Positions 8,301 through 54,088 of a DNA stretch of 64,000 nucleotides are shown one piece after another. The stretch is from positions 23,217-87,216 of the IMG/VR virus record IMGVR_UViG_3300033049_000013. One strand, written 5' to 3'. Origin of the DNA: a virus. Position 1 is the stretch's first letter; each line of letters starts with the position of its first letter. The position numbers and the translations under genes are program-made. The notes under the pieces are model-generated. The model was not told the origin of the DNA, made no database searches, and saw only the letters and a list, made by a program, of their open reading frames with translations.

Positions 8301-10055
8301 AGTCGCTGTAAGATTCTTTGAAGTACCATTCTTAAATGCTTGATACATATTCAAATCAAACAATTCCATGCGTTTCTGGTCAGCTAGAGCTTTCACTCTT
8401 TCTGCTGGTAGACTAGCATCATTACGAACTATATTAGTAAGCTCATTCATCTTCTTATCAACAGTCAGTAAATCATCAGCTATCTGTAACTTAACCCTGT
8501 TAAATGCAACCTCTTTATCAATAGCTTCTTTCTTAGCTGAACTGATTCTACCTAATGGACCAGTTTCATCTACTGCTTTACCTTGAGCATCATATACATA
8601 ATCTCCAGGTTGTACAATAATCTCCTCACCATTCGGTCCCATTTTCTTCTCTTGTGTATCTCCCCTATATCTAGCTTGTTCCTTATACCTTGGAGCGTGT
8701 TCCATAACAGCAGTCTGTCCTACACCACCTAACATACCTGAGAAGAAACTAACAGCCCCTTCCTCAGACCATGCTGCACCTATAGTAGCACCTGCAGATT
8801 CTAAGTCAAGGAATTTACCAGCCATACCTCTAGCATCTCTTTTAGCGGCTTCTTCGTCAGTCATACGACCTATTCTATCACCTGATGCTTCAGCCCATAC
8901 GTTAACAAGTTCCTCTACCCCTTCTTGTACAGCTTCAGCAGCATAAGATAACTTATTACTTTGAGGTACATAAGCTAAGTTCTTAATACGTTCTGCAGCT
9001 TCGCCAATTCCCTCTCCTTTGAATTGTTTTAATTGATGCTTTATATTACCTAAGTCATCCAATAATTGTCTGTTAGAACGAAACATAGGAGCGACACTGG
9101 ATAAATTAAGTACAGTATTTACAACTGTATTCAATCTAGTTGTTTGAGCAGCCGCCTCAGCAGCCCTTTTACGTGCATCTTCATCCGACTTACCTCTACT
9201 TCTTTGTATCTGATATGTTCTATCAAATACTTGAGCACCTGACATAGCACCCTCAACATAAGCTAATGAACCTGATGTAGCTATAGCAGCTCCAGCTCTT
9301 GCAGCATTTGCAGAAGTAGCAGTTAACGCATTAGCTAACTTAGCTCCTCTACCAAATATAGCACCAGGAATCACTGCAGTTGCAGCAAATTCACCAATAG
9401 ATTCAAATAAACCTTGTCCTAATTGTAACCACCATGTTGGATCTGATATATCGGATGCAGCATTAGGACGTTCTCTATAAATTTCACCTGCGAAATCAGT
9501 CAATCCTTCCCTTGCACCTTCTGCAAATCTAGTTAATGAGTTCTCGTAATCACCATCATCATACAATAATGTACCTAAACGACCCATATTCTCAATTAAT
9601 CCTAAACCAATACCACCAACAGTCTGTACAATAGCACTACCTGTTTGTTCCAATAATCCTTGATTCTGTGCTCTTAACTTTCTATGGTCTATTCCTTTAG
9701 TCGGACCAGTTGCAGAACCTAGGTAAGGTTCAAATTTAGACCAATCATCAATATCAGTATGTCCATATAGTCCACTTCTAGCATCTACATCTTTATCTAC
9801 TTCATCACCTCTAGAAGTATCTAATCCCCTAGTTTTACCCCATTGGTCATAGTTACTTTGAAACAAAATATTATCTTCATTAGGTACAGCATCACTAAAT
9901 CCTGATAATCCATATTCTAATAAAGCATCATTAGTTACAGGTTCATACCTAGTAATGTCTTGTGTAGTAGATATAGGAGCTGGGACTGGTGTTGGAGCAG
10001 TATTAATTCCTCCTCCATTTTGATACTTCTTTCTATTATTGTTCTTATTACTCAT
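2355..10055 (-). CDS. Giant internal virion (cargo/ejection) protein with zincin-like metallopeptidase motif, 2566 aa
   Basis: ELLVHEAIHVVL (HExxH, ~6780-6794) with downstream GLEELITQAFS; Gly/Ala-rich hydrophobic N-terminal helices; long coiled coil; last gene of the virion module; no DxDxD RNAP motif seen. Confidence 0.7.
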   Translation of the reverse strand: MSNKNNNRKKYQNGGGINTAPTPVPAPISTTQDITRYEPVTNDALLEYGLSGFSDAVPNEDNILFQSNYDQWGKTRGLDTSRGDEVDKDVDARSGLYGHTDIDDWSKFEPYLGSATGPTKGIDHRKLRAQNQGLLEQTGSAIVQTVGGIGLGLIENMGRLGTLLYDDGDYENSLTRFAEGAREGLTDFAGEIYRERPNAASDISDPTWWLQLGQGLFESIGEFAATAVIPGAIFGRGAKLANALTATSANAARAGAAIATSGSLAYVEGAMSGAQVFDRTYQIQRSRGKSDEDARKRAAEAAAQTTRLNTVVNTVLNLSSVAPMFRSNRQLLDDLGNIKHQLKQFKGEGIGEAAERIKNLAYVPQSNKLSYAAEAVQEGVEELVNVWAEASGDRIGRMTDEEAAKRDARGMAGKFLDLESAGATIGAAWSEEGAVSFFSGMLGGVGQTAVMEHAPRYKEQARYRGDTQEKKMGPNGEEIIVQPGDYVYDAQGKAVDETGPLGRISSAKKEAIDKEVAFNRVKLQIADDLLTVDKKMNELTNIVRNDASLPAERVKALADQKRMELFDLNMYQAFKNGTSKNLTATFENIRDTNNKTSISEQALKEAENIQAQIQEEAASENPSESKIEKLTEQVKQLQSLAKTTTTKAQSMGLAEDATDNGYVVKAQEAIDTIKEMDKIYKDISNRFDYGDAESHQYAKSAFLMKGNILSSRKKLNKHLETLKEHESEINDEVNKLQGNVTGLEQSVKLTQKQEGLRQSIAMLEVGEDLEGEEYHQYLETLRVLNPTLAKEIGLTTAQIDSKLLAKTKERLAGLKSNYQNQEKQIGAEKSQLIKDSLSSYLTPGQDLENASKESLAVAKKQLTDNINMIRTNTQDKLKDQYAQVYTAQADVTSAEDAFKEMTSVKGRKNFIAASTKYWGKIAEEAEAALSKTKSDEEEVKPEDVEKKDDKDDKDKGKDGKGDDNVVNRLSRDKNVKERKRVVEFMEVIKSLLDETGAIDAQIFKDKLIEFKSEDGGSLLSIVDEYSPLLDSLIKYGTKISIVDKIPANIKLDPNTPAYFTPDSNTIVFQLNDTVRPHSLSYFKELLVHEAIHVVLRNEIPNKTKESTQFVIDLKRFILSLNDGKTVPEVLSNLLKDLDSKIANAQATENVTEERMYAGAYDALEYIKKATEVLGDRNGLEELITQAFSQKEFASYLHTIKSKVGRDDSEQKGEISLWERLKGLIVEFISSVTGFSKLDELTNILDKHAPYIIPTVTGVNDVTPGRYNIEGLDLMLLGVNPDGLIELQHPLNPTYNNDNIEHMTVEKFLRLKGEGLVVNVDSDLNQEYIGLIETSTSPTFLDEIIRRNIMSSGLNAELIQELATTLDERIALLNTENEVPLTETIIEDIDEALQISELAPLGRQINELVTDSIEQSKLITLLNNKVSKLLLEDVATGIDILNIDNFASKFSEEQYNNLLAILENSINDLVLDNALELGAVTSLQEVESISGAVSAILTNFSKITRSKPRTELFFKNNKTAEEVKEVALNNRQYVMIQNIQNTFDKVFIDAYNANINDYNESLGAKDSDTEGDFNIKRKLVQLIKFKNGVELTKVSKAKYDTLYEVISEEDDSYVLIPFKTANEAKNRIEVNKDDIYDFQALNTTNRAFRENLYTPDYITKMYIHRYDKTQKLPKDYLTGILSNAYGELMYSETKANDKKIKNEVKNYFGKKYRQIPAIVMNKIDKLAKDDINGNSTYTDAEVEDMIKGFAEELYNIELDSKVAINTKAVLTKFLWDLKAKGLKLEDHVRFRLKKDISVNVNKALANELNDDPSKKLEQGLLHANPVKVASGEDFIGIHNWMDLDIAMEINLGTTDSPDWYYTGHPNNPNIYHKVKGDKTTDKVYHPGVMLKAYDLATTSDEQQEILDEFNVLYSDKNGGTLTYEDLKAFGDSSNKQAKLFEEFLDIYNKVGYSETILEPEMLKQLVNFNVSGGSIDFEYDNNKRINMDEYFYDGKEIRPEMEKFLIDGKIIIVDNKFNYDLEDSPSEKNSLSATSILGHSLDDINDPSIGGYLEDVVTTDLLSSKRNRYWMLVKDLNNKVRPIALKPRNANKEELDSFATKITNIIDVFNNQEIDLSNAESIGALRKEINTLLDSKDGLFFKVPAKFGPTVTQLEVDFASIRSNKLDAHSLILKVADKNTGKAIQIIKGLDFNSGARLKNSLLKNGLTEGNIGVSLPKPENVTSIKAILPFMEVPTTSSMFENNSIFMGLNDDIANTKDSIIEQAKSAKTETEIEIEPEIKKPKIKDDKPVDEVVKVKPKPKVKKKAIKKDKEYTDAEVLAVINSKKTILDYGSAPTLASILGVWRATRVEILTAVRSGEIIPSNIVDALRTPDWDNKDHKQIVRNIFGKLDIVLADVGIKGLRLADVKITKTEVEEQVEKQLELEFTENNLDEIKPVEPVDTIEDMQLLYQTPVIENAKTLYGELKKYGGVLGKKKFNDKADYAVVNKFLKEFKKDYFLVANFTVDQYKDFLERNSESLNKTEIKPIIERVISSIKGDISLGAPTVLLRSGTQADLVDLTRGCYKL

Positions 10056-10056
10056 G

Positions 10057-13000
10057 CTATCTAAATTTATAAGTACTTGTTGTTATTTTATAAGGATTTG
10101 TTCCTATTAACTCATCAGGATGTGGATTAATTTTTGTCTTGTATTGTCTTCTAGTTTCTCTAATATTAAGAATATCTCCTATTTGACTATCAGTTAATTT
10201 TAATGTCTTAGCAGCTTTTACAATTCTTTCAGGTGCTACATCCTCACCTATATCAATTAATTCAGCAACTTTCATGTGAACAGATACATGCCTTTTAACT
10301 GGTACTATTCTACCCTTAGCATCTCTTTGTATATTTCCTTTAGAATCTCTAGAAGGGAATGTCAATGCTACATAGTCATTTGGAATACCTTTTTCATACA
10401 GTTCTTTAGAGATATTACTTAGATGCTTATCTTTTCTAATTAATTCCTCAGCTTCGGCATATGGCATTGTACCTGAATAAGATTGTAATTTAGGTTGTAA
10501 TTGCCTTCTACCTCCTATAATTACTTCTTCCATCTCTATAAATCCACCAGGATGTATTATAGGACTCTGATAATTATCAAACGTAACTGTACTATTATCA
10601 ATATAATGATACGGGTCTGGATTATAAGCATCCTCAGCTCTATTAATTGTATAATTATAGCTTTGTCTAGTAACAGGATTATGTTGAGTATACTTACCAA
10701 CCTTTAATCCTGATTCTGCTAAGTTTTGAAGTTGCATAGAAGTTTGATGTCTTGGGTCTTCTCTCCAATGTTTTAAGAATCCAAAGTTAACATCTTCAAA
10801 TCCTACTCTAGTTGTACCTTGTTTAGCAATTTTATCTGTTTTCCTTCCCTTATCATCCAATTCATACACAGTAAATGGTAAAGAAAAGGCATTCTTATTT
10901 TCTTTACCTAATGCACTACCTAATTCATAAGTATATTGCTTACCAGTAGCTGCAGACAATTGCTGCAGGTATTGTGGCATAGTCTGAGCAGTTAATGTAC
11001 CATTCTCTCCTGGCAAATACATAGGAAGAGTATTAGTGTTCTGTTGATTCTGAAAGAATTCATTAACTCCTTTCTCTCTACCCTCTGCTAACCAATATTT
11101 ACCATCATTAGAATAAATACGATTAGACGATTTACCTGACAGTGGAGTAGCAGTCATAGTACCTAGATAGTGATTCATAGCTTTGTCATACTTAGACTTA
11201 GTAGCTGCTACTGAATTTAATTGTTCTTGTTGTGCATGTAGCTTACCAGGTTTCCAGTTAGTACCAATAGACATAGGTTCAATTAGATCTAATAGATCTC
11301 CAGCATTCTTATCTCCAGCCGCTTCTTTTGCTCGTAATTCGCTTAGAAGAGTTGAGTATGTACCTTTAGTGAATGAACTACCATTAATACCATTATCTAT
11401 GATTGAAGTCTTAAAGTCTTCATAAGTCATATTTGGATTATATTTCTTATTTAATTCATACGCTTGCTTAGATGTACTAACAAACTCATTCTGCCATTCT
11501 ACAGCATTCTCTAAGCCATTTAATTCCTCAACAGTCCATTGATAAGTTGGATTGGCTTTAACAGCATCCCCAGCTTCATTATAAGCTTGATTATGAATAT
11601 CCATTAAGTTCTTAGCTCCTTGTGCATTACGTTGAATTTCATGTAAAGCACTTACAGATAAATCAGAATTCTCTGATAATACAACTTCATCACCATCTTT
11701 ATTAGTCATAATGATTTTACCACCTCTATTCTCAAACTTCTGAGCCTGAGCAATATCATCATTTGTAATCTTACTAGCATCTCTAGCAGAATACATAGCA
11801 TTATCTCTATCAATTTTATTAGCATACTTTGGAGTACCATCAGGGTTTTTCTCACTCGCAGCAATTTGGGCAAAGAATGATGTCTCTACTCCACCTTTTT
11901 GTTGTAATAGTTGATTCTTCTTATCACCAAATTCAGTTAACGTCTTACCATAAGGAGACTCTACAGTAACTCCTGTATCAAAACGCTCCATTACTTCATA
12001 CTCCTTGTCTCGCTTAAACTCATGGTCTGATATTGCTATTGCAAAGCTATGTTTTATTTTAGCTAATTCAATCTCTTTTGAATGTGCCCATACAGGATTC
12101 TTCATTACCTTCAAATCTTCATCATGATCCATGTGAGCTATCTTACCCGCATAAGGTTCTGCTTCTTTACGAATTATATCAGCTATAAATGTATCGAACA
12201 TCTTAGTAGTTGCTACTTTAATAGGGTCTGCAGAAGCTAGCTTATTATAAGCATTCTGAGATTGTTTAACATCGTTTTCTAATGCTGACATTAAAGCTCT
12301 CTTAGCACGTTCTGTTTGTGGACCAGCTATACCATCAACTTTAATTATAGGTCTTCCTGTACGTTCTTGATATAACTTATTTATTGCAGTCTGTAATGCA
12401 GAACCATGCAATGTATTTAACTCATTAATAGACCCTTTAAATCCATCTAACTTCTCTTGGGCATTACCTACGAATTGGTCATAGTATTCCTTAGACGGTT
12501 TAGCTCCGCCACGAACTTCTTGGTCATAAGTCCATTCAGCTTCTAATTCACCTGTTTTCTTTAATTCATTTCGTAATGCAGATGATGCTTGTTCTAGTAA
12601 TTCTTTCTCACTAATCCAAGTATCTTTATCTTTCCTCCATTCTAATACACCTGTAGGTGAAGTCCTAGAACTTCCTTGTCCCCAAGTAGCATTAGATGAC
12701 TCTTTAGCATTAGCTACGAATTTCTCTAAGAATTCAGGTCTATTAACTGCATCTGTTAAATTGACATCACCCCAAGGATTATATTGAGTATGGTCAGTAC
12801 CAATACCAACATCTCTTGTCTGTGCTAGTTTTCTCTTTAGCTGATACTCTTGTGCTTTAGTAATATCACCATCCTTACGTCTAGTAGTAACATCTTTATA
12901 GTTAGTCATATAACCAGTATGACGATTCTTTATAGCAGTCATTTCTCCATGAATACCAAAATCTTTACCTACCACACCAAATAATTCCTCAGCTTGTGCA

Positions 13001-13278
13001 GTTGACTTAGTTAAATCTCCATTATAAAGATTCATAATATTATCAATACTCTTTTGATAACCTAGTTGCTTTTCTGTATGACGTTTTCTATCGTATCCCT
13101 CTAAACTAGGAACTTCTGATACCTTAGCTTTCAATTTTTTAAAATCTACTAACTTGGTATCATAGTCCTTTTGTTTTGTGGCTAAAGCTTGTCCCAATAA
13201 TTGAATGTTAGGTTTAAAAAAGAAATCCGCACGTGTCTGGTCAGCACCTAAATTTCCTGGTAATATTCTTGTTGCCAT
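10057..13278 (-). CDS. Cargo/ejection protein with putative peptidoglycan-binding motif, 1073 aa
   Basis: ALQTAINKLY...IIKVDGIAGPQTERA matches the DGxxGxxT signature of PG_binding_1; lies between cargo genes. Confidence 0.55.
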   Translation of the reverse strand: MATRILPGNLGADQTRADFFFKPNIQLLGQALATKQKDYDTKLVDFKKLKAKVSEVPSLEGYDRKRHTEKQLGYQKSIDNIMNLYNGDLTKSTAQAEELFGVVGKDFGIHGEMTAIKNRHTGYMTNYKDVTTRRKDGDITKAQEYQLKRKLAQTRDVGIGTDHTQYNPWGDVNLTDAVNRPEFLEKFVANAKESSNATWGQGSSRTSPTGVLEWRKDKDTWISEKELLEQASSALRNELKKTGELEAEWTYDQEVRGGAKPSKEYYDQFVGNAQEKLDGFKGSINELNTLHGSALQTAINKLYQERTGRPIIKVDGIAGPQTERAKRALMSALENDVKQSQNAYNKLASADPIKVATTKMFDTFIADIIRKEAEPYAGKIAHMDHDEDLKVMKNPVWAHSKEIELAKIKHSFAIAISDHEFKRDKEYEVMERFDTGVTVESPYGKTLTEFGDKKNQLLQQKGGVETSFFAQIAASEKNPDGTPKYANKIDRDNAMYSARDASKITNDDIAQAQKFENRGGKIIMTNKDGDEVVLSENSDLSVSALHEIQRNAQGAKNLMDIHNQAYNEAGDAVKANPTYQWTVEELNGLENAVEWQNEFVSTSKQAYELNKKYNPNMTYEDFKTSIIDNGINGSSFTKGTYSTLLSELRAKEAAGDKNAGDLLDLIEPMSIGTNWKPGKLHAQQEQLNSVAATKSKYDKAMNHYLGTMTATPLSGKSSNRIYSNDGKYWLAEGREKGVNEFFQNQQNTNTLPMYLPGENGTLTAQTMPQYLQQLSAATGKQYTYELGSALGKENKNAFSLPFTVYELDDKGRKTDKIAKQGTTRVGFEDVNFGFLKHWREDPRHQTSMQLQNLAESGLKVGKYTQHNPVTRQSYNYTINRAEDAYNPDPYHYIDNSTVTFDNYQSPIIHPGGFIEMEEVIIGGRRQLQPKLQSYSGTMPYAEAEELIRKDKHLSNISKELYEKGIPNDYVALTFPSRDSKGNIQRDAKGRIVPVKRHVSVHMKVAELIDIGEDVAPERIVKAAKTLKLTDSQIGDILNIRETRRQYKTKINPHPDELIGTNPYKITTSTYKFR

Positions 13279-13302
13279 GTTATTTTATTATCTTTAAAAT
13301 GT

Positions 13303-16173
13303 TTATTTTCCCTTGAATTGTATTAATTCGTTTGGATCAACTTGACCTGACATTACCGCTTGATAGGCTGCTGGACCATAGTTTTTATAAATGTTTTGCA
13401 TTACTTGCCATTCAAATTGATTTTGTCTAGCATTTCCTAGTTGTCTACCAGTATCTACTATACCTGTACCAAATTGAGTAACAGCTTTATTTCTAAGTGA
13501 ATCCCTAGCTAACTCTGCAGCTCTATTTTCACTTCTTGCAGATTCCTCAGCTCTTCTACGGTCTTCACCTCTAGCTACTTGTGTCTTATCCGCAGCTTCA
13601 GCTAATTGAATATCAATAGCTTGTTCTCTCATTGCTAAATCTCTAGATTTATCACTCATAGTAGAATATAAGTTAGCACGTAAAGCATTCTGTGCCTGTG
13701 CATTACCTACTTGATTTTGAATACCTCTAGTAGCTGCTGTATATCCAGCGTGTAATGGTCTCTTATCTAAGTTAGATCTACGACTTCTTTGTCTATGTAG
13801 TACTTTAGCTAACTCAGGATTATACTTAGCTGATGTATAAGCTGGTGGCTTAAAAGATTCTGCTAAATTATAGATTGCTGGAGTAAATTCACCAGCTAAT
13901 TGCAACCATGCATCATCAGTTAATGAACCTAAATTACCTAAAAATCCATCACCACCACGTCCAGTATTACGTCCAGTATTATCTGGCTTACTATGTCTTC
14001 TACGTTTAGATTTAAACTCAGGAGCATCTACAAGAGCTACTTGTTCATCATATAAATCAGCATTATAAATATCTTCAGGAAAATACCCTTTTACATTTAG
14101 AGGAGCAATAGCATCACCAGGAGCAGTAACAGGAGAACCATTACCACTAAAACCAGAAGTATTATTACTACTATTAGTTGGAGTTTGTGTTAATGGATTA
14201 CTTTGTAGAAAACTACTTATATCTTCTCCATAGCCAATACTACTCATAGGTTGTCCTCTAAAGTCATTTTGACTAAATAAACCTTGACTTAAATCCATTT
14301 CTTCATCCCCTGTGTCACCACCTATTTGATATTGTCTTCTTGAGTATCCTCCGAATTCTCTATTAGGTGTAAGCGATTCATAAAATGGAGATGGTAAAAG
14401 GTCAATTTCATTATCTTCTATAGAATTAGGATCTATTGGGAAATTATTAGCAGCGCCACTACTTATTGGTGCTGTTTGATTAGGTGCAACTGGATTAGGA
14501 AAAGGCTCAGACATTGGTTCATTAATAGTAGGTGCAACTTGTGAAGTACCTCTACTCTTTACTCTAGGTAAGTTAGCTAACCTATCTATTCTATCTAACT
14601 CAGCTAAATCCATTCTAGCACGTCTATTACCTTGTCTTGTAGTTACATCAGCAGTTCTATTAGCTTCTTGTGCTGCATTAATATTAGCAGCATGTTCAGC
14701 TCTATCAGCACTAGTTGTAGCACGTTCTATGCGTCTATTTAACTTCTCAGCAGCAGACTCATTTTTCTTTTGTTGGATTGCTGCTTTACGTCTAGCACGT
14801 TCTTGTGCCAGTCTACCTCCTGTAGGGTCAGTAGTTACATCTGCAGTACCTTGTACAGACGGATGTTGTTTAGTTACTTGTTCGTTTAATGCTGCTTGCT
14901 TTTCAGCAGTAGTTTGATTACTATTACTAGGTGTTTGTTTTCCAGTAAATAAATCATCTGCAACTGAATTTATCTCTACCCATTGGTCTTTAATGAAAGC
15001 AATATCACGTGGATTACTAAATCCTGAAGCTAATCCATCATTTAATTCCTGTGCCTCTAACAGTTGGTCTACTACACTTTGCTTGGCATTAGCACTATTA
15101 TCATTATTAGCACCTGGAGTAGTATTAGTTGTAGCATTGGCTTTTGCTGCCTTAGTTGCTGCTTTCTTCTTACCTGATGTAGGAGTATTGCCAGCTAGTA
15201 AATCACCTGCAGCCTTTGCTCCTGCTATATTTGCACTAGTTGCTATATTAGCTAAATTACCTGTACTTGGGTCAACTCCATTAAAGAATGGTCTTGCATG
15301 TGCAGCTTCTACTTGTTGCTGTGCAATCTCTTGAGCAGTTGGTGGACCAAACATTTCTCCATAATTAGGGAAATATTGTGATAAAATGTTACCATTATCA
15401 TCATCTAATTCGCCTGGTAATGGTGCATTACGTTCAAAACCTCCTACATAAGCATTAGCTTCCTCTGCTGTACCAGTAGTATATTTACTGTACGGATTTA
15501 CAGCTGGAGGAACAGGAGGATCAGGAGTTACTGTTGTACCTTTGGGTAACATTCCCTCAATCTTTACAGGTTGTCTAGGAGCAGACGCATTAGCAGCTAA
15601 CTCCTCAGTAATAGCTTCAGTAAACCCACTATACCCAGCTTCATTATTATATCTTACAACATCATCATACGTAGCTAAATATTGATTGTAAGCTTCTAAA
15701 TCTTCTGTAGCTAAGTTATCTGGATTAAAGTTAGGATTTTGCTGTACATGATTAAACCACCTATCAAAGTTAGCTCTAGTTTCAGGGTCATCTGTAACTC
15801 CTGGATAAATAACACTCCAGTCTAATACACTGTCAGTAGGTATAGTAGGAGTAGTTGGACCCGACCCAGGTGTTCTTAATCCTAATTGTGCTTTTATTCT
15901 TTTCTCGTACACGTTTTGTCCTTTAACAGTAAAGTCTCCTCCATTTGCTTTTGCAATTCCTGAGTCTGTAATTCTACCGTCGTCATCGAATCCATAGTAC
16001 ATTACATCATCATTCATACCTTTCATAGTCATATTCATTTCATTTCTGCCTCCTCCTGGAAATATCATAGATTCGTAATTGCTGTCCTTAAGACCAGTAC
16101 GAGCCATTCTAGAATTCCTTGCAACAGGGGCAGTTCCTCCATCTTGTTTTAAGTCTCTTATGTTAAATCTCAT
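13303..16173 (-). CDS. Cargo protein, low-complexity, 956 aa
   Basis: Pro/Asn/Ala-rich and probably disordered; xxxGG motifs (LKQDGG, QYQIGG); C-terminal helical region; position downstream of the muzzle-like gene as in crAss-like phages. Confidence 0.55.
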   Translation of the reverse strand: MRFNIRDLKQDGGTAPVARNSRMARTGLKDSNYESMIFPGGGRNEMNMTMKGMNDDVMYYGFDDDGRITDSGIAKANGGDFTVKGQNVYEKRIKAQLGLRTPGSGPTTPTIPTDSVLDWSVIYPGVTDDPETRANFDRWFNHVQQNPNFNPDNLATEDLEAYNQYLATYDDVVRYNNEAGYSGFTEAITEELAANASAPRQPVKIEGMLPKGTTVTPDPPVPPAVNPYSKYTTGTAEEANAYVGGFERNAPLPGELDDDNGNILSQYFPNYGEMFGPPTAQEIAQQQVEAAHARPFFNGVDPSTGNLANIATSANIAGAKAAGDLLAGNTPTSGKKKAATKAAKANATTNTTPGANNDNSANAKQSVVDQLLEAQELNDGLASGFSNPRDIAFIKDQWVEINSVADDLFTGKQTPSNSNQTTAEKQAALNEQVTKQHPSVQGTADVTTDPTGGRLAQERARRKAAIQQKKNESAAEKLNRRIERATTSADRAEHAANINAAQEANRTADVTTRQGNRRARMDLAELDRIDRLANLPRVKSRGTSQVAPTINEPMSEPFPNPVAPNQTAPISSGAANNFPIDPNSIEDNEIDLLPSPFYESLTPNREFGGYSRRQYQIGGDTGDEEMDLSQGLFSQNDFRGQPMSSIGYGEDISSFLQSNPLTQTPTNSSNNTSGFSGNGSPVTAPGDAIAPLNVKGYFPEDIYNADLYDEQVALVDAPEFKSKRRRHSKPDNTGRNTGRGGDGFLGNLGSLTDDAWLQLAGEFTPAIYNLAESFKPPAYTSAKYNPELAKVLHRQRSRRSNLDKRPLHAGYTAATRGIQNQVGNAQAQNALRANLYSTMSDKSRDLAMREQAIDIQLAEAADKTQVARGEDRRRAEESARSENRAAELARDSLRNKAVTQFGTGIVDTGRQLGNARQNQFEWQVMQNIYKNYGPAAYQAVMSGQVDPNELIQFKGK

Positions 16174-16200
16174 TTTAAATTTTTTTTACAATAGTCAACT

Positions 16201-16246
16201 TAATACTAAGGCTTATAAGAGTAATCCTATAAGCCTATAATATTAT
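16201..16246 (-). terminator. Intergenic hairpin (terminator or processing site)
   Basis: Minus strand AGGCTTATAGGA-TTAC-TCTTATAAGCCT; weak U tract. Confidence 0.5.
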
Positions 16247-16263
16247 TATAAAGTATTGTTCTT

Positions 16264-17817
16264 TTAGTATAAATCAAAATCTCCTGTCATAGAATCATAG
16301 TTAGACACTCGTCCTTGTACAGTTCTACCTCCTTTCTCAAATTTTACAAATTGACCAGGATTAACACCTTGAATTACAATTTCGTCTTGATATTTAAAGT
16401 CAGGAAAACCTCTATCATTTCTACCACCATGCATGAATTGAGCCACCTCATCTTCAGGAGACATCATACTCATATCATCCATTGGTGCTTCGAGTTGTTC
16501 TTGTGGTTGACCTTGTTGTTGACCTTGTTGAGGTTCACTACCTAAATCTTGATTAGGGTCAGAATTTTGTTCAATTAATTGTCCTAAGACTTGACCTATC
16601 TTACCTGTATGTAAGTTATTTAATGGAGTATTTTTAATTTCCTCCATAGAAATACCTTGTTGAAGTAATTCTTTTTCAAATCCTTCAGAGAAAATATCAG
16701 TAGGATTACCTTGTAGCTGTTCAGGACTTAAAGGCTTTAATGCATTAGGTATCATTTCCATTACTTGTTGAGCAACTTGTGCTCCTATATTCATAGAATC
16801 ATTACCTACAGAATCTACCTCTTGCATATCTTGAGGTGTTGTCTCAGGTAATTGCATTGCTTGCTCTTCTTGTAATGCTGGATTCATTTCTGCTTCCATC
16901 ATACCACCTTCTTGATAAGAACGTCTTGAGTAAGGACTCATGTCTTCACCTATGTTATTCTCTACATTGTAAGTATGTCTATCCTTGGGAGATAATCTAC
17001 TAGGGTCTTGATAAGAATTACCACCTAATTGCATAACAATATTATCTTGATATTTGAAATCAGGGAATCCACGGTCATTAATACCACCTCCATATGCCCT
17101 ATTTCGTCTAGGCATAAATCCACCATTACGTTGAATAGGTACACCATTTTGAGGTGGTGACGGTTGATTTAAATCTGGTTGAGCTGGCATCTCAGCAGGT
17201 TGTTGTGAAGCTGCTAATTGAGGTAATTCTAAATTAGCCACAGCTTGCTGGTCATTACCTGCTAAAGTTTCAGCTTCATTAGGATTTTCTTGCATAATAA
17301 AATCCATTACAGAACCAAACTCTCTACCTTTTTTCTTTAATAGGTCGTGTAATCCCTTCATAAACCTACCTTCATTTTGTCTCTGTTCCATCATAGACAA
17401 TTCTTCTTCTAACATTGCTTTAGCTTTAGGGTCGTTTAAATATCTATCTCTAGGATTGTTTTCGGCTTTACTGAAATATTTCATATAAGGTTTCATATCA
17501 TCTGCCTGTGATTTACCATATTTCTTTCCCGCAGGAAATCCTTTTTCGGTAATCTTAGCAGAAGCTATATATACGGATTCATCAGTCTTCATAGGTATAC
17601 CCTCAGTACCACCTGCGTTTTTTTGACCATGCCTAGCACCATTAGCTAGAAAGCCTTTAGAAGAGACTTTACTAGCACTAGCACCACCAAACATAGACAC
17701 ATCGCTTGGGTTACCAACAACGACTTCACCACCTTCAATTTCAACATCTACAGCATCACCACCGTCTTCTTTAAAAGTAAGAGGATAGGGACTATTACGT
17801 CCCCCCTCTTTTAATAC
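16264..17817 (-). CDS. Cargo protein, distal part; probably reached by -1 frameshift from ORF 17811..19061 rather than the GTG at 17700
   Basis: The frame is open for 39 codons upstream of GTG 17700 (VLKEGGRNSPYPLTFKEDGGDAVDVEIEGGEVVVG) with no ATG/GTG/TTG back to the preceding in-frame TAG. It contains a VEIEGGEV motif resembling crAss-like cargo proteins, and an internal repeat NDRGFPDFKYQD. Confidence 0.7.
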   Translation of the reverse strand, partial: VLKEGGRNSPYPLTFKEDGGDAVDVEIEGGEVVVGNPSDVSMFGGASASKVSSKGFLANGARHGQKNAGGTEGIPMKTDESVYIASAKITEKGFPAGKKYGKSQADDMKPYMKYFSKAENNPRDRYLNDPKAKAMLEEELSMMEQRQNEGRFMKGLHDLLKKKGREFGSVMDFIMQENPNEAETLAGNDQQAVANLELPQLAASQQPAEMPAQPDLNQPSPPQNGVPIQRNGGFMPRRNRAYGGGINDRGFPDFKYQDNIVMQLGGNSYQDPSRLSPKDRHTYNVENNIGEDMSPYSRRSYQEGGMMEAEMNPALQEEQAMQLPETTPQDMQEVDSVGNDSMNIGAQVAQQVMEMIPNALKPLSPEQLQGNPTDIFSEGFEKELLQQGISMEEIKNTPLNNLHTGKIGQVLGQLIEQNSDPNQDLGSEPQQGQQQGQPQEQLEAPMDDMSMMSPEDEVAQFMHGGRNDRGFPDFKYQDEIVIQGVNPGQFVKFEKGGRTVQGRVSNYDSMTGDFDLY

Positions 17818-17823
17818 TTTTTT
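17779..17823 (-). other. Programmed -1 ribosomal frameshift signal
   Basis: In-frame A_AAA_AAG (17823-17817), 6-nt spacer TATTAA, then hairpin AAGAGG-GGGGAC-GTAATA-GTCCCT-AT-CCTCTT; the -1 frame is exactly the next ORF. Confidence 0.8.
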
Positions 17824-19061
17824 CCGTATCGACCGCCCATTTCGTACATTCTATTTCTATTTGTAGCACGTCCTCCCATTCTATAAGAAGGCATCATACC
17901 CATTCCATCATCCATCATTCCACTAGAATAAGGACGAGTCATTCCACCCATTTGCATTCTGTCGTAATCTCTACCATAAGGGTCATTTCCTCTCATGTAT
18001 TGATTAGTCATTCCGCCCATAGCGTATCTTGAACTCTGAGGCATATTGTTAAGGTCTCTACCTCTTTTATCAATACCTCTGTTATTAAAACGATTAGGAG
18101 CATCCATTCGCATGTCCATCATACGTTGTCTTTGCTCTGGAGTCATAAGAGACTCTCTATACTCTTGCGGATTAGGCGATGCTTCGAATCCTCTAGTTAA
18201 ATCACTATCGTCTTGCATCATCTGTGCTCTTTCAGCCTCAGCTTGCATCATTGCCATTTTCTCTGCTTTTTCTCTAGCCATACGTCTAGATACTCTACCC
18301 ATGCCTGTTCCGCCACCATCTTGGTACATTGAACGACCACCATAATTTCTCATCATGCCTTTTAAATAAGTTTTATGTTCAGGATTCCACCATGTCTGAG
18401 GATGTCCCATTCCATTTTGTTTCATACTGTTCATTTTAGTTAAATTTGAATCATAGTTATTACTATGTCTATAGTTATTTCCATTAGTACGCATTCCATC
18501 TGCAGCTACTAACGGATTTAGGGAAGTACCTAAACTTCCAACATTCTCTGCTTTCTGACCTTCAGCTACTTGTTCTTGTTGTTGAGCAGCTTGTTGTCTA
18601 TTAGCAATAATAGAACTAGCAGCACCTGCAACAGCACCAAGTGGTCCAGCAGTTGCAAAACCTTCCCCAGCACCACTTAAAGTACTACCAAGCATATTTT
18701 GCCCACTACTAGCTCCTTTAGTATCATCTTGTATTGCAGAACCTACTATACCTGTAGCAAGTCCAGCAGCTTTTCCAGTAATCTGTCCAGCTCTTTTATA
18801 ATTAAAAGGTTTACCCTCTGAATCTAATTCAATTTCAGGATCATTATTCATGTAGTCATCTCCTGGTTCACTAACTCCAGTTTCTCCACCAATCTGTCTT
18901 CGTTTTCTAGTAGTTTCCATTAATAGATTAATTTCACTAGGACGCATGTTACGAAAACCTTCATAAGATAAATTAGTAATTGCTCCTCGTTTTTTAAGCG
19001 AATCGTACAGTCCTCTTCTTCTATCAATTGTACCACCTTGTTGATACTTAAATCTTGTCAT
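17811..19061 (-). CDS. Cargo protein, proximal part, 416 aa (Met/Gly/Arg-rich with a Gly/Ala hydrophobic segment)
   Basis: Directly follows the muzzle-like gene; eight xxxGG motifs; segment GFATAGPLGAVAGAASSII. Confidence 0.6.
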   Translation of the reverse strand: MTRFKYQQGGTIDRRRGLYDSLKKRGAITNLSYEGFRNMRPSEINLLMETTRKRRQIGGETGVSEPGDDYMNNDPEIELDSEGKPFNYKRAGQITGKAAGLATGIVGSAIQDDTKGASSGQNMLGSTLSGAGEGFATAGPLGAVAGAASSIIANRQQAAQQQEQVAEGQKAENVGSLGTSLNPLVAADGMRTNGNNYRHSNNYDSNLTKMNSMKQNGMGHPQTWWNPEHKTYLKGMMRNYGGRSMYQDGGGTGMGRVSRRMAREKAEKMAMMQAEAERAQMMQDDSDLTRGFEASPNPQEYRESLMTPEQRQRMMDMRMDAPNRFNNRGIDKRGRDLNNMPQSSRYAMGGMTNQYMRGNDPYGRDYDRMQMGGMTRPYSSGMMDDGMGMMPSYRMGGRATNRNRMYEMGGRYGKKY

Positions 19062-19073: not shown

Positions 19074-22000
19074 TTATCTTATAGATAAGTTAGTTAAGAA
19101 CGTCATTATCTCTGTTTTGATTTTATAGTCTGCATCAGTATTATTAAAAAATAATCTAACTGCTACATATTTATCTCTAAATCTAGCCTGCTTATAAATA
19201 GACTTTGTACCATCCACACTTAGCGGATTTATAACTCTATCTAAGTAACCTTGTCCTTCTGTATTAAAGGAAGTTTGTAAATTACTCCAGTTAGAAGTAA
19301 AGAAAGGAATACTACCATTTGTTACTTCATCCCTAAATCTATTAAATCTCCAGTAATTTTCTGTCCTATCTATTAAAGTTTGTGTTAGAGGTAACGTAAT
19401 ATTTTGATAACTGTTAGGTATTTTAACTATAAGGTTTCTTAAATTAGAACATTGTTTACCATTATACACGTAAAACCTATCAAAAGTAACATCTTCCACT
19501 CTATAAGAGTAGTCGGAGTCAGCCTCGTATATATAACTATCTGTTACAAATTGTGTACTATAATAAACCTTTTCTGTAGCAGGTGATTGGTCTAAACTAA
19601 TATCTATAATGTGGTCATACTTTACACCATAGTAGGTTTGAAAGTTTCTTTCTATATGTTTCCAGACTACTGTATTATTATCAGTTCTATTTATAAAACT
19701 GTAGAAGTTAGTATTGTCATGGTACATATAATTTGGTTGATAGCTATGGAAGCTTACCCAAAAATTACCATCTAATGAATAACTCATAGTCCAACTTTTA
19801 TTCTCAAACCATGCAGTGTCATTCATACCTATTTCTACAAATTCTGAACCATTCCAGTAATGCCATGCGATGTAATCAAATTCATCGAATATTGCATATA
19901 GAGTATTAACTACTCCGCTTACTGGTAAAGTACCTAAATAGCCTCCAAATAATATAGTATTATTATCATCATCTGTTGCACGAATTAAATAATCCTTTTT
20001 ATGTAATACAATTCTATTCATTCTAGCATCATAAACAGCTTGGAATCCTACAGAGTTATCTGTGGAAGTACCACGTACTGTATATTCAATACCAGCAGTT
20101 AGCATATAAAATTGATTAATAAATTCTAAAGATAAATTTGAGTGAAACCATTGTTCCATTCCTAGTTTAGATACTTCATTTAATCCTTTACCAAATAAGA
20201 ATATTCTACCACCAGCTTCATCTACATAGAATGTACCGTATTGCGTCCCTACGACAGTGTATTGACTACCTGAACCTCCATATCCATATTGTACAGAAAC
20301 AAGTCTCTGCGGTGGAATAGAACCTATTTGTCCTGTTCCTATGAAAATAGTGGCTGCATTACTATCTAATTGTTGAGGTCTAGTCTGTACTGAAAATAAT
20401 GCTTTCTCAGTATGTACATATAATTGATCTTTTTCTAAGAACATTGCAGTAATAGGACCAGATTCACTAGGAATAGGAAATTTATTATTAGGCAATATTA
20501 TTTTAAAATTATCAGCAATATCTTGAGCTTGTCCAGGAATTGAGTAGTAGATACTATTCGGTTCTCTTCCACTACAATCATCACAGTAATTATAATTATC
20601 TGATACAGGGAAACTAGGAGTCTCATTATTTTGTTTACCAAAGTCTTTATTGTAATCATACTTAAATTCTCTGTAACCAAAGTTTGCTTCACTTACTTCT
20701 GTAGTATTAGTTAGCTCCACATCAGACCATAAAGTATCTTTATTGAAAGTTGAGCCACTTCTACCTACATTAAGATGGGTAAACCTATCAAAATATTTAG
20801 GAGCATATTCAGATTCTGGTACTGCTGAATGTGCTAAAGAACTATTAATATTATCCGACTCTACAAAACCTTCCATAGATGATGCATTTGATTTCATATT
20901 ATTAAGGTAATCACCATCACCTGAGATTTTAGACCATGTTTTAACATTTCTTACTTTAGTAATAAAAGTATCTCCACCTTTAATAAGTTCATCATTAAAT
21001 ATAGCAGTACGAGGTATAAAACAAGTGTTCAATCGTAAGTATGTAATATTCTCTAAAAACCCAAACACATCTGTATTATTTTTTATAGACACATAGAAGT
21101 TAGATACACTATGTCCTCTTAAGGCATCTTGTGCATCATCTACACTAGATTTTTTATATCCGTAAATAATATCACTTACTTGACTTAATGCAGGATTCAT
21201 TACCATAGGAAAAGGTAATTTAGTTTGATAGAAACTAGCTACTTGCCCAAATGAATCTGTAGTTAATTGTGTAGGGATTGAAAACTGTGCAGCCCCACCA
21301 ATTGAATGCCAGGGTACAATTGCTGCTCCCCTAATTTCTCTTTGAAATCCTAAGTATGCTAAATCTGTAGGTATTAATGTAGTGCTAGAACCTGGTGAAT
21401 TTGAATAAAGATTCTGAGCTACAGCAACATGATTGAAATCACAATGCGTATAGCTGTCGTAATAATTAGTTCTACCTAATAGTAAATCACCTAATTCTAA
21501 CTCTACTTGTTGCACAACAAATAATTCACGTTCTCCTGAATTTGCAGTTAAGTTAGATGGATGATAACTCATTACAGGACATTCTATTTTAATGAAATCT
21601 CCTGACGGTACACTTAAATCAAAGACGGTTGAAGGTGAAACGTACTCCACAAAATTACTTTCTGTCCCATGGAAGTGGTCATTGTCTGATGCAGAAAATC
21701 CTATGTCTGGTCTAAAATCTGGATTACTACTGTATCCATAACCATCATAAGTAGGTAATGAACTAGTAAAAGATATGTCTGCTCTAATGCCATCACTAAT
21801 TGTATAAGAATCTTCACGTATCCTACCTACTGGAGGTACACCTGGAAGTCCTGGTAATAGAGCAAAATCATAAGTAAAGAATCCTGTAAGTAAATTAAAT
21901 TTTATTTCTGGAAACCATATACGTGCATATCCACCTGCATTAGCTAAAGCAAAAGCCCTAGTATAAAATGTAGGTACATAGTTATTTCTCCACATGTATC

Positions 22001-24368
22001 CTTTATCTATAATGGTCTTATTTTCAGGAGTTCGTTTACCATACACAATATAATGCCCACGTATGCTATTTCTTAATTTTGTAGGCATATTAGCATACAC
22101 CTCAGTCATATCGACTATTAGACCTATCTTATTTAAAGCTATTCGCCTAAATACATTTGGATCTACAGTAGAAGGTATATTGTTAGTTGTTACCCAATCT
22201 CTTGTAGTTAATCCCATTTGATTTTCTTGATAGCCATAAACACCTGCATCTCCTCCACAATCAGGTATTCTATGATGTCTTATTGGTTGTCCTACTAAAT
22301 TAGCTCCACCAATACTAGTAGCATCAAATACTGGTACTCCACTACAATCTTTATTAGTAGTGTATATATTATTAGAATGTTCATAATATCCCATATAACC
22401 TTCTATAGTAGTATCCGTATTAGTACCCGTGGTTACAAAAGTATTATGTACTTTCCATCTAGGTATTGCTGTACAATCTAGAAAATCAAAACTACTTTCA
22501 TTTAGGAATAAACCAACATTTCCACCAGCAACATATACATCAACTCTACTACCTCCTGTTATTTCATGGTAAGAAACACCAACAGTATTACCTGATGTAG
22601 ACACTCCATCTGAATCATAATAGAATATCTGTAAACACATAATGTTTTTAGAAACATCGTTATATGAAAAACCTAATGTATTATCAGCAGTAGTTAAGAA
22701 TTTGAAGGTTGTATCTACAAAATAAGAATCTCCTCCTCCTAGTATAGTAATACGAACGAGTGCTCTATCATTTGTGTCCAGAGCAAGTGTAAATTCACCT
22801 GTACTACCTGTAAGTAAACTAACTGTGAATGTAGTACTAAATTTAGCAGAAGTTTCATTTACTTCAGTACACGCTAATGTATCTAATAAATGAGTTACAT
22901 TACTATAACCTACTCTAGTATCTTCATCTCCACTTTGTATTTCTGCATCAGGAGTAATTGTTAACGGTCGGTCATCCCATCTATTTACTAATGGTAAGTT
23001 ACCTCGTGAGATGTGTATATTCCTGCTATTCAAGTTAGCAATAGGAGTTAAGTCATTACCATCGAAGTCTTCATTTAAAGGTCTACCAGGCGTATGTACT
23101 GCTGGCAATTCTGTACCATTATTAAGAACAAACACTGTACCTAGAGATATAATCTCATCTCTCATATGTGTTTTACCATCAAAAATTATAACACTATTTC
23201 TATCTGCAAATTCTTGACCTACATTAGGAGATTTACTATTAACAACATAGTCTTTATACATTCTCCATTTAGTCTTAGCTCTCAAGTTAGTTCTTTGTAG
23301 TACTGCTAAGTCTTCATTTAAATTAGCTACATTTCCTAATAATAATCTATTATCAATAATTTCGTGTGCTCTTACACCAGTAAATGGTATTATTGGCACA
23401 GTTACTTCAGATAAACTAGATATAGTATGACTAGTACTATCAAATCCTAAATAAGTATACTCGGCAGTACCAATGTTATTATCTACAACAATAGGTATAC
23501 TATCCAATATAAATACTTCGTCAATATTGCTTGTACCTTGTATAGCAGATAATACAGCTAGTTGTACAAATCTAAATGTAGGATCTAAATCAGTTAAATT
23601 CAATTTAATACTTTTGTTAGTAATAGTATCTATTGATTCTCCATCCGCAATATTACTGTTTGTAGATTCTGTGTATACAAATATAGGGTAACTAGCAGGA
23701 GACCAGTTAGTCCCATTACGTTGACTATCTAAGTACCTCATTACGAATTGATGGCTACCACTAGGTATAGAACCTCCAGCATCTCTTACTACTTCTAACT
23801 TTAAACATCCAGGATTAAAAGATAAGAAGTGATTAAATTTATCACAATTCCAAGCTGTTAAATAGTTAGTACCTAGATTGGCAGTATCTATTGTAAATAA
23901 TGGATTTCCATTACTATCCAATGCTAAGTAACTATCTAAGTTATCTAAGTTAAGCGCTTTGTACGAAGTTATACCATCAGTGAAATAAACTATTCGCTCA
24001 CATCCTCCTACAATTCTAGCTCTAGTAGTTAATTGTCTATGGCTTTTAAATCCAATACAATTAGTTTTAACGGATACTGCAAAATCACAATTCATAGGGT
24101 CATGAATACCTATAATAGAATCTGTATCATTTGTAAAAAATAGTACAAACTTATTATCAGGTAGTATTTGTGCTCCGATTAACGTATAGTTATCTTCACT
24201 GTAATTGATACATATTTCATTACCTACTTCATTAGTTATAGATGAAGCATCTCCATCCCAAGAACCAAATAAAGCATTTAATGCAAAATTCCATGTACCT
24301 TTAGGTTGTTGCTTAGGACTCGCTTGTGTGAACATTCCTTTTACTAAAGGAGTCGATTCTTTTTTCAT
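19074..24368 (-). CDS. Tail muzzle / stabilization protein (crAss-like), 1764 aa
   Basis: N-terminus KGMFTQASPKQQPKGTWNFALNA and SITNEVGN, motif IVYFTDG, and WTMSYSLDGNFWVSFHSYQP near the C-terminus resemble P22 gp10-like stabilization proteins of crAss-like phages; beta-rich; synteny. Confidence 0.75.
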   Translation of the reverse strand: MKKESTPLVKGMFTQASPKQQPKGTWNFALNALFGSWDGDASSITNEVGNEICINYSEDNYTLIGAQILPDNKFVLFFTNDTDSIIGIHDPMNCDFAVSVKTNCIGFKSHRQLTTRARIVGGCERIVYFTDGITSYKALNLDNLDSYLALDSNGNPLFTIDTANLGTNYLTAWNCDKFNHFLSFNPGCLKLEVVRDAGGSIPSGSHQFVMRYLDSQRNGTNWSPASYPIFVYTESTNSNIADGESIDTITNKSIKLNLTDLDPTFRFVQLAVLSAIQGTSNIDEVFILDSIPIVVDNNIGTAEYTYLGFDSTSHTISSLSEVTVPIIPFTGVRAHEIIDNRLLLGNVANLNEDLAVLQRTNLRAKTKWRMYKDYVVNSKSPNVGQEFADRNSVIIFDGKTHMRDEIISLGTVFVLNNGTELPAVHTPGRPLNEDFDGNDLTPIANLNSRNIHISRGNLPLVNRWDDRPLTITPDAEIQSGDEDTRVGYSNVTHLLDTLACTEVNETSAKFSTTFTVSLLTGSTGEFTLALDTNDRALVRITILGGGDSYFVDTTFKFLTTADNTLGFSYNDVSKNIMCLQIFYYDSDGVSTSGNTVGVSYHEITGGSRVDVYVAGGNVGLFLNESSFDFLDCTAIPRWKVHNTFVTTGTNTDTTIEGYMGYYEHSNNIYTTNKDCSGVPVFDATSIGGANLVGQPIRHHRIPDCGGDAGVYGYQENQMGLTTRDWVTTNNIPSTVDPNVFRRIALNKIGLIVDMTEVYANMPTKLRNSIRGHYIVYGKRTPENKTIIDKGYMWRNNYVPTFYTRAFALANAGGYARIWFPEIKFNLLTGFFTYDFALLPGLPGVPPVGRIREDSYTISDGIRADISFTSSLPTYDGYGYSSNPDFRPDIGFSASDNDHFHGTESNFVEYVSPSTVFDLSVPSGDFIKIECPVMSYHPSNLTANSGERELFVVQQVELELGDLLLGRTNYYDSYTHCDFNHVAVAQNLYSNSPGSSTTLIPTDLAYLGFQREIRGAAIVPWHSIGGAAQFSIPTQLTTDSFGQVASFYQTKLPFPMVMNPALSQVSDIIYGYKKSSVDDAQDALRGHSVSNFYVSIKNNTDVFGFLENITYLRLNTCFIPRTAIFNDELIKGGDTFITKVRNVKTWSKISGDGDYLNNMKSNASSMEGFVESDNINSSLAHSAVPESEYAPKYFDRFTHLNVGRSGSTFNKDTLWSDVELTNTTEVSEANFGYREFKYDYNKDFGKQNNETPSFPVSDNYNYCDDCSGREPNSIYYSIPGQAQDIADNFKIILPNNKFPIPSESGPITAMFLEKDQLYVHTEKALFSVQTRPQQLDSNAATIFIGTGQIGSIPPQRLVSVQYGYGGSGSQYTVVGTQYGTFYVDEAGGRIFLFGKGLNEVSKLGMEQWFHSNLSLEFINQFYMLTAGIEYTVRGTSTDNSVGFQAVYDARMNRIVLHKKDYLIRATDDDNNTILFGGYLGTLPVSGVVNTLYAIFDEFDYIAWHYWNGSEFVEIGMNDTAWFENKSWTMSYSLDGNFWVSFHSYQPNYMYHDNTNFYSFINRTDNNTVVWKHIERNFQTYYGVKYDHIIDISLDQSPATEKVYYSTQFVTDSYIYEADSDYSYRVEDVTFDRFYVYNGKQCSNLRNLIVKIPNSYQNITLPLTQTLIDRTENYWRFNRFRDEVTNGSIPFFTSNWSNLQTSFNTEGQGYLDRVINPLSVDGTKSIYKQARFRDKYVAVRLFFNNTDADYKIKTEIMTFLTNLSIR

Positions 24369-26634: not shown

Positions 26635-26653
26635 TCGTATAGTTTTATATTAT

Positions 26654-26696
26654 AAAGAAAGGTATTAAGGTTCTTTACCCTAATACCTTTTGTTTT
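26654..26696 (-). terminator. Intrinsic terminator
   Basis: Minus strand AAAGGTATTAGGG-TAAAGAA-CCTTAATACCTTT then CTTT. Confidence 0.7.
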
Positions 26697-34565: not shown

Positions 34566-34579
34566 ATTGATTTAATATT

Positions 34580-34617
34580 AAAAAGCGGTGATGATTTTAC
34601 ACCACCAACCGCTTTTT
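34580..34617 (-). terminator. Intrinsic terminator
   Basis: AAAAAGCGGT...ACCGCTTTTT inverted repeat after the auxiliary capsid gene. Confidence 0.8.
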
Positions 34618-34651
34618 ATTAATTTATATATTATTTTACTTTTAACTAATC

Positions 34652-36088: not shown

Positions 36089-36856
36089 CTATTTGTCATT
36101 ATTGACTACGGCTTGAGATGATTGAAATCCGAATTGGTCTTGTATGTCTTTAGCAGCATACATGACAGCGTATTCTAAAATTTCATCATGGAAGTCGCTA
36201 TGAATGTCACAATGAACAATTGAAGAAAAAGAAGGTGCTTGGGTAATTTTATCATCTATGTGGATGTAAGTACCCAAGCACACTCTATCTGGTATCTTAA
36301 TGTAACTTAAGTGTACTGCAGTTACATTAAATTGTTGTTCTCCTTTAAAATTAGTTGTATCGAAATAGATACTAAATAAATCTTGATTTACGTTAGTAGT
36401 TAGTGTACTTTTTCCAAAAGTTGCATGAACTCTTCTCCATTCGAAGTTAGGTTCATTAAACGTATTTTTTCTATCGTCTACTTGCCAACTCTTATAATCT
36501 ATGGTTTCAATACATTCATCCTTTTTTATAGTAGTTCTAGCAGATGTAAGAAATAGATATGGAAATGCTAAGTCTTTTAATCTAACTTCATATATACCAT
36601 TACCTGAGTTCATAGGAACTAAAGCTGGTTGTACAGGATATTTTACATGTAAACTCATTAAATTACTGATTCTTTCCTGATTGGTCTCAAATCCTGTTTT
36701 CTTAGGATTATCTGTACCATAACGAGCTTTTACAAACTTCTTGATAGCCCTATTTATATAAGCATCTATCTCGTTGTCATAAAAATCAGGTCTATCTTGC
36801 GAAGCTACACGGTCAATTCTTAATTCAAATTCAAAGTGCATTTCATCTATCAGCAT
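36089..36856 (-). CDS. Tail ring / head-tail adaptor protein, 255 aa
   Basis: EMHFEF...EIDAYINRA...GFETNQERISNL...YIKIP...HDEILEYAV pattern of crAss-like ring proteins. Confidence 0.7.
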   Translation of the reverse strand: MLIDEMHFEFELRIDRVASQDRPDFYDNEIDAYINRAIKKFVKARYGTDNPKKTGFETNQERISNLMSLHVKYPVQPALVPMNSGNGIYEVRLKDLAFPYLFLTSARTTIKKDECIETIDYKSWQVDDRKNTFNEPNFEWRRVHATFGKSTLTTNVNQDLFSIYFDTTNFKGEQQFNVTAVHLSYIKIPDRVCLGTYIHIDDKITQAPSFSSIVHCDIHSDFHDEILEYAVMYAAKDIQDQFGFQSSQAVVNNDK

Positions 36857-38042: not shown

Positions 38043-38078
38043 TAATATTATTAGTACAACATCTTAATTAGTTAGTTA

Positions 38079-54069: not shown

Positions 54070-54088
54070 TATTGCTATTAATTTATAA

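Follow-up and report, generated by a model that had tools for sequence, protein, structure and literature searches.

A probable programmed -1 ribosomal frameshift joins two putative cargo reading frames of an uncultured marine crAss-like phage

Does the gene next to the muzzle gene of an uncultured marine crAss-like phage end where gene callers end it, or does part of its translation run on into the reading frame behind it? The question is raised by positions 16264-19061 of a 64-kb window (33% G+C), the whole stretch of DNA analysed here, which belongs to the 87,216-bp IMG/VR virus record IMGVR_UViG_3300033049_000013. Two open reading frames (ORFs), here called ORF A and ORF B, follow each other on the minus strand, and gene callers split the locus into two proteins with a 110-nt "gap" between them. 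A first-pass annotation made from the letters alone had proposed that a -1 frameshift links the two. We consider it highly probable, on comparative sequence grounds, that ORF A and ORF B are joined by a conserved programmed -1 ribosomal frameshift giving a short and a long form, ORF B being produced mainly or only through the slip. The parts of the junction, in the order in which a ribosome would meet them, are the following.

17811-19061, minus strand: ORF A, the 0-frame short product of 416 aa, ending ...GGT CGA TAC GGA AAA AAG TAT TAA
17824-17850, minus strand: nine codons 5' of the heptamer over which the -1 frame already lacks stops
17817-17823, minus strand: slippery heptamer A_AAA_AAG, in phase with ORF A (codons GGA AAA AAG)
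17811-17813, minus strand: 0-frame stop TAA, one codon past the heptamer, ending the short form
17779-17810, minus strand: hairpin, candidate frameshift stimulator, 6 nt 3' of the heptamer and followed by ACUUUUAAAG
17701-17817, minus strand: 39-codon linker read in the -1 frame, starting with GTA (Val), the first slipped codon, and reaching to the first canonical start
16264-17700, minus strand: ORF B as given by gene callers, with a GTG start and 478 aa; C-terminal part of the predicted 932-aa form

The heptamer is of the X_XXY_YYZ type and sits in the phase of the upstream ORF, both in the window and in the relative described below; it lies at 17823-17817, and its phase, as first reported, was verified. 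The -1 frame is open from 17850 down to the ORF B stop at 16264, so only a slip at the heptamer or within 17824-17850 can join A to B. We confirmed that this is the frame of the next ORF and that the 39 codons past the slip site contain no ATG, GTG or TTG, the first canonical start being GTG 17700. The predicted products are a short protein of 416 aa and a long one of 415 + 39 + 478 = 932 aa, the length originally calculated, whose junction would read ...GRYGKK/VLKEGG... (the slash marks the slip). In-phase A_AAA_AAG is found only twice in the 18,763 codons of the window's long ORFs, which makes a chance occurrence at the end of ORF A unlikely; the second copy (36521-36527) meets a -1 stop three codons later. 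Read-through or reassignment of the stop codon was rejected, since the 0 frame soon meets further stops beyond the TAA. A search of Rfam gave no frameshift element at the site, its sole row being a chance-level match to PrrB/RsmZ (E = 1).

Comparison with a relative, the 5,799-bp metagenome contig SPKZ01014240.1 (hereafter L003), provides one line of evidence. This contig holds the C-terminal end of a muzzle gene, a 575-aa ORF A homologue with 27% identity to ORF A of the window, and an ORF B homologue with 44% identity over a 481-column alignment. Its junction reads ...GGT TAC GGA AAA AAG TAC TAG: the heptamer (2142-2148) has the same phase as in the window, the stop (TAG) stands one codon past it, and ORF B lies in the -1 frame, which is open 10 codons upstream. 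The best-conserved DNA block in the alignment of the two junctions is TACGGAAAAAAGTAyTArAAGAGGG. The linkers are equal in length, GKK being followed by VLKEGGRNSPYPLTFKEDGG in the window and by VLEEGDRFYPYPQEYMEDGG in L003.

In the 54 nt past the heptamer the two sequences differ at 22 nt, with no indel. Read in the -1 frame, these 18 codons comprise 4 identical, 6 synonymous (CGT to AGA for Arg and TTA to CTA for Leu among them) and 8 non-synonymous ones; each of the other two frames gives 2 synonymous and 11 non-synonymous changes, with stops. The undoubted coding sequence of ORF B downstream has 18 synonymous and 23 non-synonymous changes, a ratio that the linker matches. This coding-like pattern argues that the linker is selected as protein from the first codon past the slip site, in agreement with the earlier remark that it "reads as real protein", and the signature begins ahead even of the L003 ATG, which stands 18 codons past the slip site of that contig.

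The ORF A family provides a second line of evidence. An exhaustive HMMER search with ORF A detected six distant homologues (310-576 aa, E 7e-15 to 5e-5) and no fused ORF A-ORF B homologue among 1.84 billion cluster representatives. In the family alignment the C-terminal halves are scarcely alignable, while the extreme ends agree: GKKY in the window and in P0008, GKKC in P0009, KKKKKC in P0005 and GKKFFRR in P0007. The P0008 cluster consists of four distinct sequences from four contigs in two archives, L003 among them, and all four end in GKKY. KK plus one to four residues thus ends eight distinct family sequences, seven of them with G-K-K. The residue after KK varies (Y, C, F), and every codon for these residues starts with T; placed after the G of AAG, such a codon yields GTN, that is Val, in the -1 frame. 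Val is encoded at the first -1 codon in both the window and L003.

Other searches added no members. Searching 50,697 phage records by blastn and tblastn with the stretch, ORF A and ORF B brought up no relatives, and neither did genome-contig scans with our alignments A3 and A5. Scans of IMG/VR viral contigs with ORF B, the muzzle C-terminal end, alignments A1, A2 and A5 and the DNA pattern GGAAAAAAGTANTANAAGAGG gave no further relatives, and a metagenome scan with alignment A3 returned L003 as its sole match. Word-index protein searches with ORF B, the N-terminus of the L003 ORF B homologue and profile A1 recovered just the queries themselves or a known member; they were unproductive because low-complexity words swamped the candidate lists.

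The start assigned to ORF B is also unusual. A-rich leaders lacking a Shine-Dalgarno (SD) sequence are typical of Bacteroidota and their phages. Among 26 minus-strand starts that we compared, the 30 nt before the other 25 contain 37-70% A and 7-33% G+C, and those before GTG 17700 contain 23% A and 50% G+C, making it the outlier of the set; judged by the comparison with L003, this leader is itself protein-coding. The "gap" in front of it is among the longest in the operon. With such a context, ORF B would lack a credible independent start in this phage, for which reason it would be made mainly or only as part of the fusion. The L003 junction, the linker coding signature, the family C-termini and the start context all argue in favour of the originally proposed 416-aa and 932-aa forms.

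We infer the following course for the slip and its efficiency. Ribosomes on A_AAA_AAG would hold Lys-tRNAs at AAA in the P site and AAG in the A site. Most would stay in frame, add Tyr, meet TAA and release the 416-aa protein. A share would shift back by one base and pair anew on AAA_AAA, a move that the hairpin probably promotes and to which the nearby stop perhaps contributes; these ribosomes would read GTA (Val), pass through the 39-codon linker and continue into ORF B, producing the 932-aa fusion. A_AAA_AAG is shift-prone by itself in E. coli, so the frameshift reading does not depend on the hairpin.

Lysine codon usage in the whole record is consistent with a host in which such sites slip. 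Lys-Lys pairs preceded by A are encoded as AAA-AAR in 4 of 25 cases, compared with 30 of 83 when preceded by T; after A, AAG-AAA is used 18 times, and G_AAA_AAG is absent from the record's Lys-Lys pairs. This bias suggests selection against accidental slippage. No tRNA genes were detected in the 87-kb record, hence it supplies no phage-borne tRNA-Lys.

The hairpin forms 12 pairs between the arms AAGAGG-GGGGAC and GTCCCT-(AU bulge)-CCTCTT, with 2 nt in the bulge and 6 nt in the loop (GUAAUA). The 41-nt piece containing it folds at -18.2 kcal/mol (z = -3.79), which none of 200 shuffles equals, and the same energy is reached in just 13 of 21,320 sliding 41-nt windows on the same strand, at about six places. 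The hairpin 6 nt past the heptamer thus does stand out, as had been noticed on first reading. It may act as a slippage stimulator, as a transcription attenuator or as both.

Strong hairpins with U-rich tails were also observed in intergenic gaps, at 16203-16243, 26652-26695, 34578-34618, 38004-38047 and 54081-54127 (minus strand); one of them directly follows the major head protein gene and one (16203-16243) directly follows ORF B. These intergenic hairpins are probably intrinsic terminators.

Several observations weigh against a programmed ribosomal frameshift. The L003 hairpin is weak (-8.4 kcal/mol, z -0.9); it shares with the window the 5-bp stem base GAGGG/CCCUC and adds a short inner stem, so that the structural stimulator is not clearly conserved. 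As to the checks that the first-pass annotation suggested for homologous loci, the heptamer is kept in L003, none of the homologues found is a fused ORF, and the hairpin is weakly conserved. L003 is the sole relative compared as DNA, the others having been compared as protein. Two of the six homologues, P0006 and P0010, lack the GKK end, although they may be truncated. According to work in E. coli, a host tRNA-Lys(CUU) would, if present, weaken the slip on AAG. The two remaining points, the ATG in L003 and the terminator-like look of the window hairpin, are what two ordinary, separately translated genes would be expected to show. ORF B would then have its own start, GTG 17700 or ATG 17694 in the window and ATG 2193 in L003, the GKK(Y/C) end would be kept for protein reasons, and the hairpin would be an intrinsic terminator or attenuator. 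The position of ATG 2193, 18 codons past the slip site, makes an independent ORF B start possible in L003; the window hairpin resembles the genome's intergenic terminator hairpins, including the one 3' of ORF B, and has a short U tract (ACUUUU) 3' of it; and gene callers annotate ORF A and ORF B singly. However, the 39 linker codons align with L003 without an indel and show the -1-frame coding pattern from the first codon, ahead of the L003 ATG, and GTG 17700 has the outlying context described above. The 0-frame residue that follows KK differs among family members, in contrast to the conserved -1 Val. L003 has neither the U tract nor the strong stem of the window, and the terminator scan flagged the hairpin on the non-coding strand only, with no flag at the site on the coding strand. 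We therefore regard separate translation of the two genes as improbable.

Slippage could also take place during transcription: RNA polymerase would add an A in the A6 run, and the part of the mRNAs carrying A7 would have A and B in one frame. The GKK/V... outcome is identical, so the comparative evidence cannot separate ribosomal from transcriptional slippage. The slip site is a homopolymer run, and crAss-like phages have unusual RNA polymerases of their own (PMC10172136). Against this, the heptamer phase is kept in L003, and transcript slippage would give no role to the exact X_XXY_YYZ phase, the final G, the spacer of 6 nt or the hairpin, all of them features of ribosomal shifts. Six A's are moreover a short run, since efficient slippage by RNA polymerase usually requires a homopolymer of about nine or more, and we hold this explanation to be decidedly improbable. 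The locus might finally be an artefact, the A run having been misassembled or misread from a true A7 that leaves a single 932-aa ORF, or else a gene in decay, recently inactivated by a frameshift mutation. Homopolymer runs are classic sites of indel errors, and the first-pass annotation had already raised an assembly error. The Logan re-assembly of run X1 (172,581-bp contig, word depth 22) shows 0 differences and 0 gaps over 16264-19061, with an identical A6 run; it was probably built from the same reads, so that it is a check on the assembler and not on the reads. A stronger case is made by the recurrence of the break in the eight distinct family sequences: L003, three further distinct sequences of its cluster and three more distant homologues end at the same place as ORF A, and no fused homologue is present among the 1.84 billion cluster representatives searched. 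We find this explanation highly improbable.

The programmed -1 frameshift, the reading we prefer, resembles several known systems. In E. coli dnaX (Tsuchihashi/Kornberg, Flower/McHenry, Larsen/Atkins) an in-phase A_AAA_AAG is reportedly followed by a stem-loop about 6 nt downstream; the window has the identical in-phase heptamer and a stem-loop at similar spacing. The dnaX slip leads to a stop after one codon and a shorter protein, whereas the slip in the window would lead to a longer one. Moreover, dnaX uses an upstream SD-like stimulator; none is conserved here, GGAGG being present upstream in L003 only, and SD pairing plays little part in the likely host phylum. In the IS3 family (IS911, IS3, IS150), A_AAA_AAG near the end of the upstream ORF, together with a 3' structure, directs a -1 slip that yields OrfAB while OrfA is also made. 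Here the logic, a long form made by slipping, is the same, and the overlap is equally short (9-10 codons in the window and L003), but the IS3-family genes encode transposases of mobile elements, not virion proteins, and have no sequence relation to the window. The initial "dnaX/IS-type" label therefore fits the signal, which is dnaX-like, and has to be amended for the outcome, which would be that of IS3 OrfAB or lambda G/GT and not that of dnaX.

In phages, the slips of lambda G/GT, T7 10A/10B and the phage A2 major head protein yield short and C-terminally extended forms in a set ratio. As predicted for the window, these -1 slips take place towards the 3' end of genes of the virion module and are kept among relatives whose sequences have diverged; the lambda heptamer is G_GGA_AAG and needs no hairpin, and that of the window is A_AAA_AAG. 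The lambda, T7 and A2 genes encode tail chaperones or capsid proteins, while the gene in the window belongs to a cargo/ejection block; the crAss-like phages have a podovirus-like form and are not known to possess a G/GT pair. The frameshifts published for phages affect genes of tail chaperones and capsid proteins and those of a few enzymes (PMC10885494). Our literature searches found no paper on a frameshift in crAss-like phages or in ejection/cargo proteins; the initial opinion had been that a frameshift in a cargo gene would be unusual. The -1 programmed frameshift is thus known as a kind, and its gene context here is unreported.

The assignment to a cargo block follows from the setting of the locus. 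The minus strand of the window bears a crAss-type virion module, including the major head protein (phrog_11589). The muzzle gene (19074-24368, minus strand, 1,764 aa) matches Pfam PF25731 crAss_MUZ (E 3.9e-37), and the nearest cultured phages of its product are FpV4-type Flavobacterium phages and Cellulophaga phages (28-30% identity). ORF A begins 12 nt past the muzzle gene and is followed by ORF B and by ORFs of 956, 1,073 and 2,566 aa. At the matching position crAss001 encodes the cargo proteins gp45 and gp46 and the virion RNA polymerase proteins (PMC10172136); ORF A thus has the place of a C1/gp45-like gene, directly 3' of the muzzle gene and within the cargo and virion RNA polymerase block. 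By this gene position, the ORF A and ORF B parts are probably ejected virion cargo proteins.

Protein searches of Pfam and PHROGs, loose thresholds included, gave nothing significant for ORF A or ORF B. The module that the slip would append, about 517 aa long, has no recognisable domain. ORF A has no Cys, is rich in Gly, Arg and Met, and contains eight [YFMKR]xxGG motifs and a Gly/Ala-rich hydrophobic segment at about residues 121-153; a segment of this kind is present at about 135-190 in every ORF A homologue. ORF B likewise has no Cys. The [YFMKR]xxGG motif occurs 19 times per 1000 aa in ORF A, 13.5 in ORF B and 5.2 in the 956-aa protein, compared with 0.8 in the non-cargo proteins of the window, an unusual composition that links the two parts with one another and with the 956-aa protein next to them. 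An AlphaFold2 model of ORF B from a two-sequence alignment was poor (mean pLDDT 42.7), and its comparison with the Protein Data Bank (PDB) by VIA-align and Foldseek yielded nothing beyond helical hairpins of a generic kind and, for the C-terminal strands, SH3/Tudor-like rows that were not significant.

Some further features of these proteins were noted. The cargo block at 2355-19061 encodes five proteins with one Cys in 5,531 aa, located four residues from the end of the 2,566-aa protein, and three of the cargo-block proteins have [YFMKR]xxGG inside their first 15 residues. The frameshift linker itself contains KEGG, KEDGG and IEGGE. The ORF B homologue of L003 (2193-5666, 1,157 aa) has its first ~440 and last ~35 residues in common with ORF B of the window and an insertion of ~650 aa between them, which points to modular gain or loss inside the protein.

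The 932-aa fusion is the positional counterpart of crAss001 C1 (gp45), because gp45 follows the muzzle gene. At 842 aa, gp45 is close in length to the fusion and, like ORF A, comes directly after the muzzle. Part of gp45 lies in the tail and part in the capsid; it is considered the first protein to be ejected and has a predicted N-terminal transmembrane segment at residues 136-158 (PMC10172136). In hhalign the hydrophobic segment of the ORF A family was placed on gp45 residues 120-150, overlapping that segment, over 31 columns at a probability of 38%; gp45 also contains an [F/Y]xxGG-type peptide, as ORF A and ORF B do. There is, however, no significant sequence similarity between gp45 and the fusion (BLASTP E 0.4), no structural match was obtained, and gp45 is a single ORF with no frameshift, unlike the locus in the window. 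We also considered Flavobacterium phage FpV4 gp30 as a relative and rejected it, the match being confined to a VE(V/I)EG-type peptide (E 0.31). As separate observations, gp30 carries VEVEGKE, resembling VEIEGGE of ORF B, and the gp30/gp31 junction (16682-16690), behind the muzzle homologue of FpV4, keeps the same frame, with one stop and one sense codon before the gp31 ATG.

Because gene callers split the locus, the predicted 932-aa product is absent from every protein database searched. If the slip is real, a probable ejected protein of this phage would come in two nested versions, their proportions dictated by the RNA sequence. For crAss-type virions this predicts a short and a long protein at the C1 position with a defined junction peptide, and for annotation it suggests a rule: family members that end in GKK and a stop, followed by a -1 ORF lacking a start, would be candidates for the same arrangement.

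More tentatively, frameshifting at module seams could be a general way in which crAss-like phages build ejected cargo, an extension that we put forward as possible but doubtful. The slip would then set the ratio of a short form located in the tail lumen or inserted in the membrane (ORF A) to a long A-B form that, as crAss001 C1 does, reaches from the tail into the capsid. The KEGG/KEDGG/IEGGE linker would be a "seam" of the sort that joins modules in other cargo proteins, and split, frameshift-joined and fused genes would be interchangeable evolutionary states of one protein train.

The occurrence of the phage was examined in sequencing runs. A seawater metagenome (run X1) is the sole run that contains the entire stretch. 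Runs X3 and X4 contain almost none of it, the X3 match being only 34 nt at <90% identity, and no RNA run containing the stretch was listed. A 189-nt contig from a subsurface metagenome of another study (run X2) is identical to part of ORF A (18102-18290) and is too short to place the phage there. The Logan contig bearing 16264-19061, at 172,581 bp, is twice the length of the 87,216-bp record (CheckV completeness 62%), so the genome of this phage may greatly exceed what the record implies and may also surpass typical crAss-like genomes in size. We also detected a full-length gene for a GroEL-like chaperonin (41109-42767; phrog_5725, E 2.6e-109) inside the head-assembly block.

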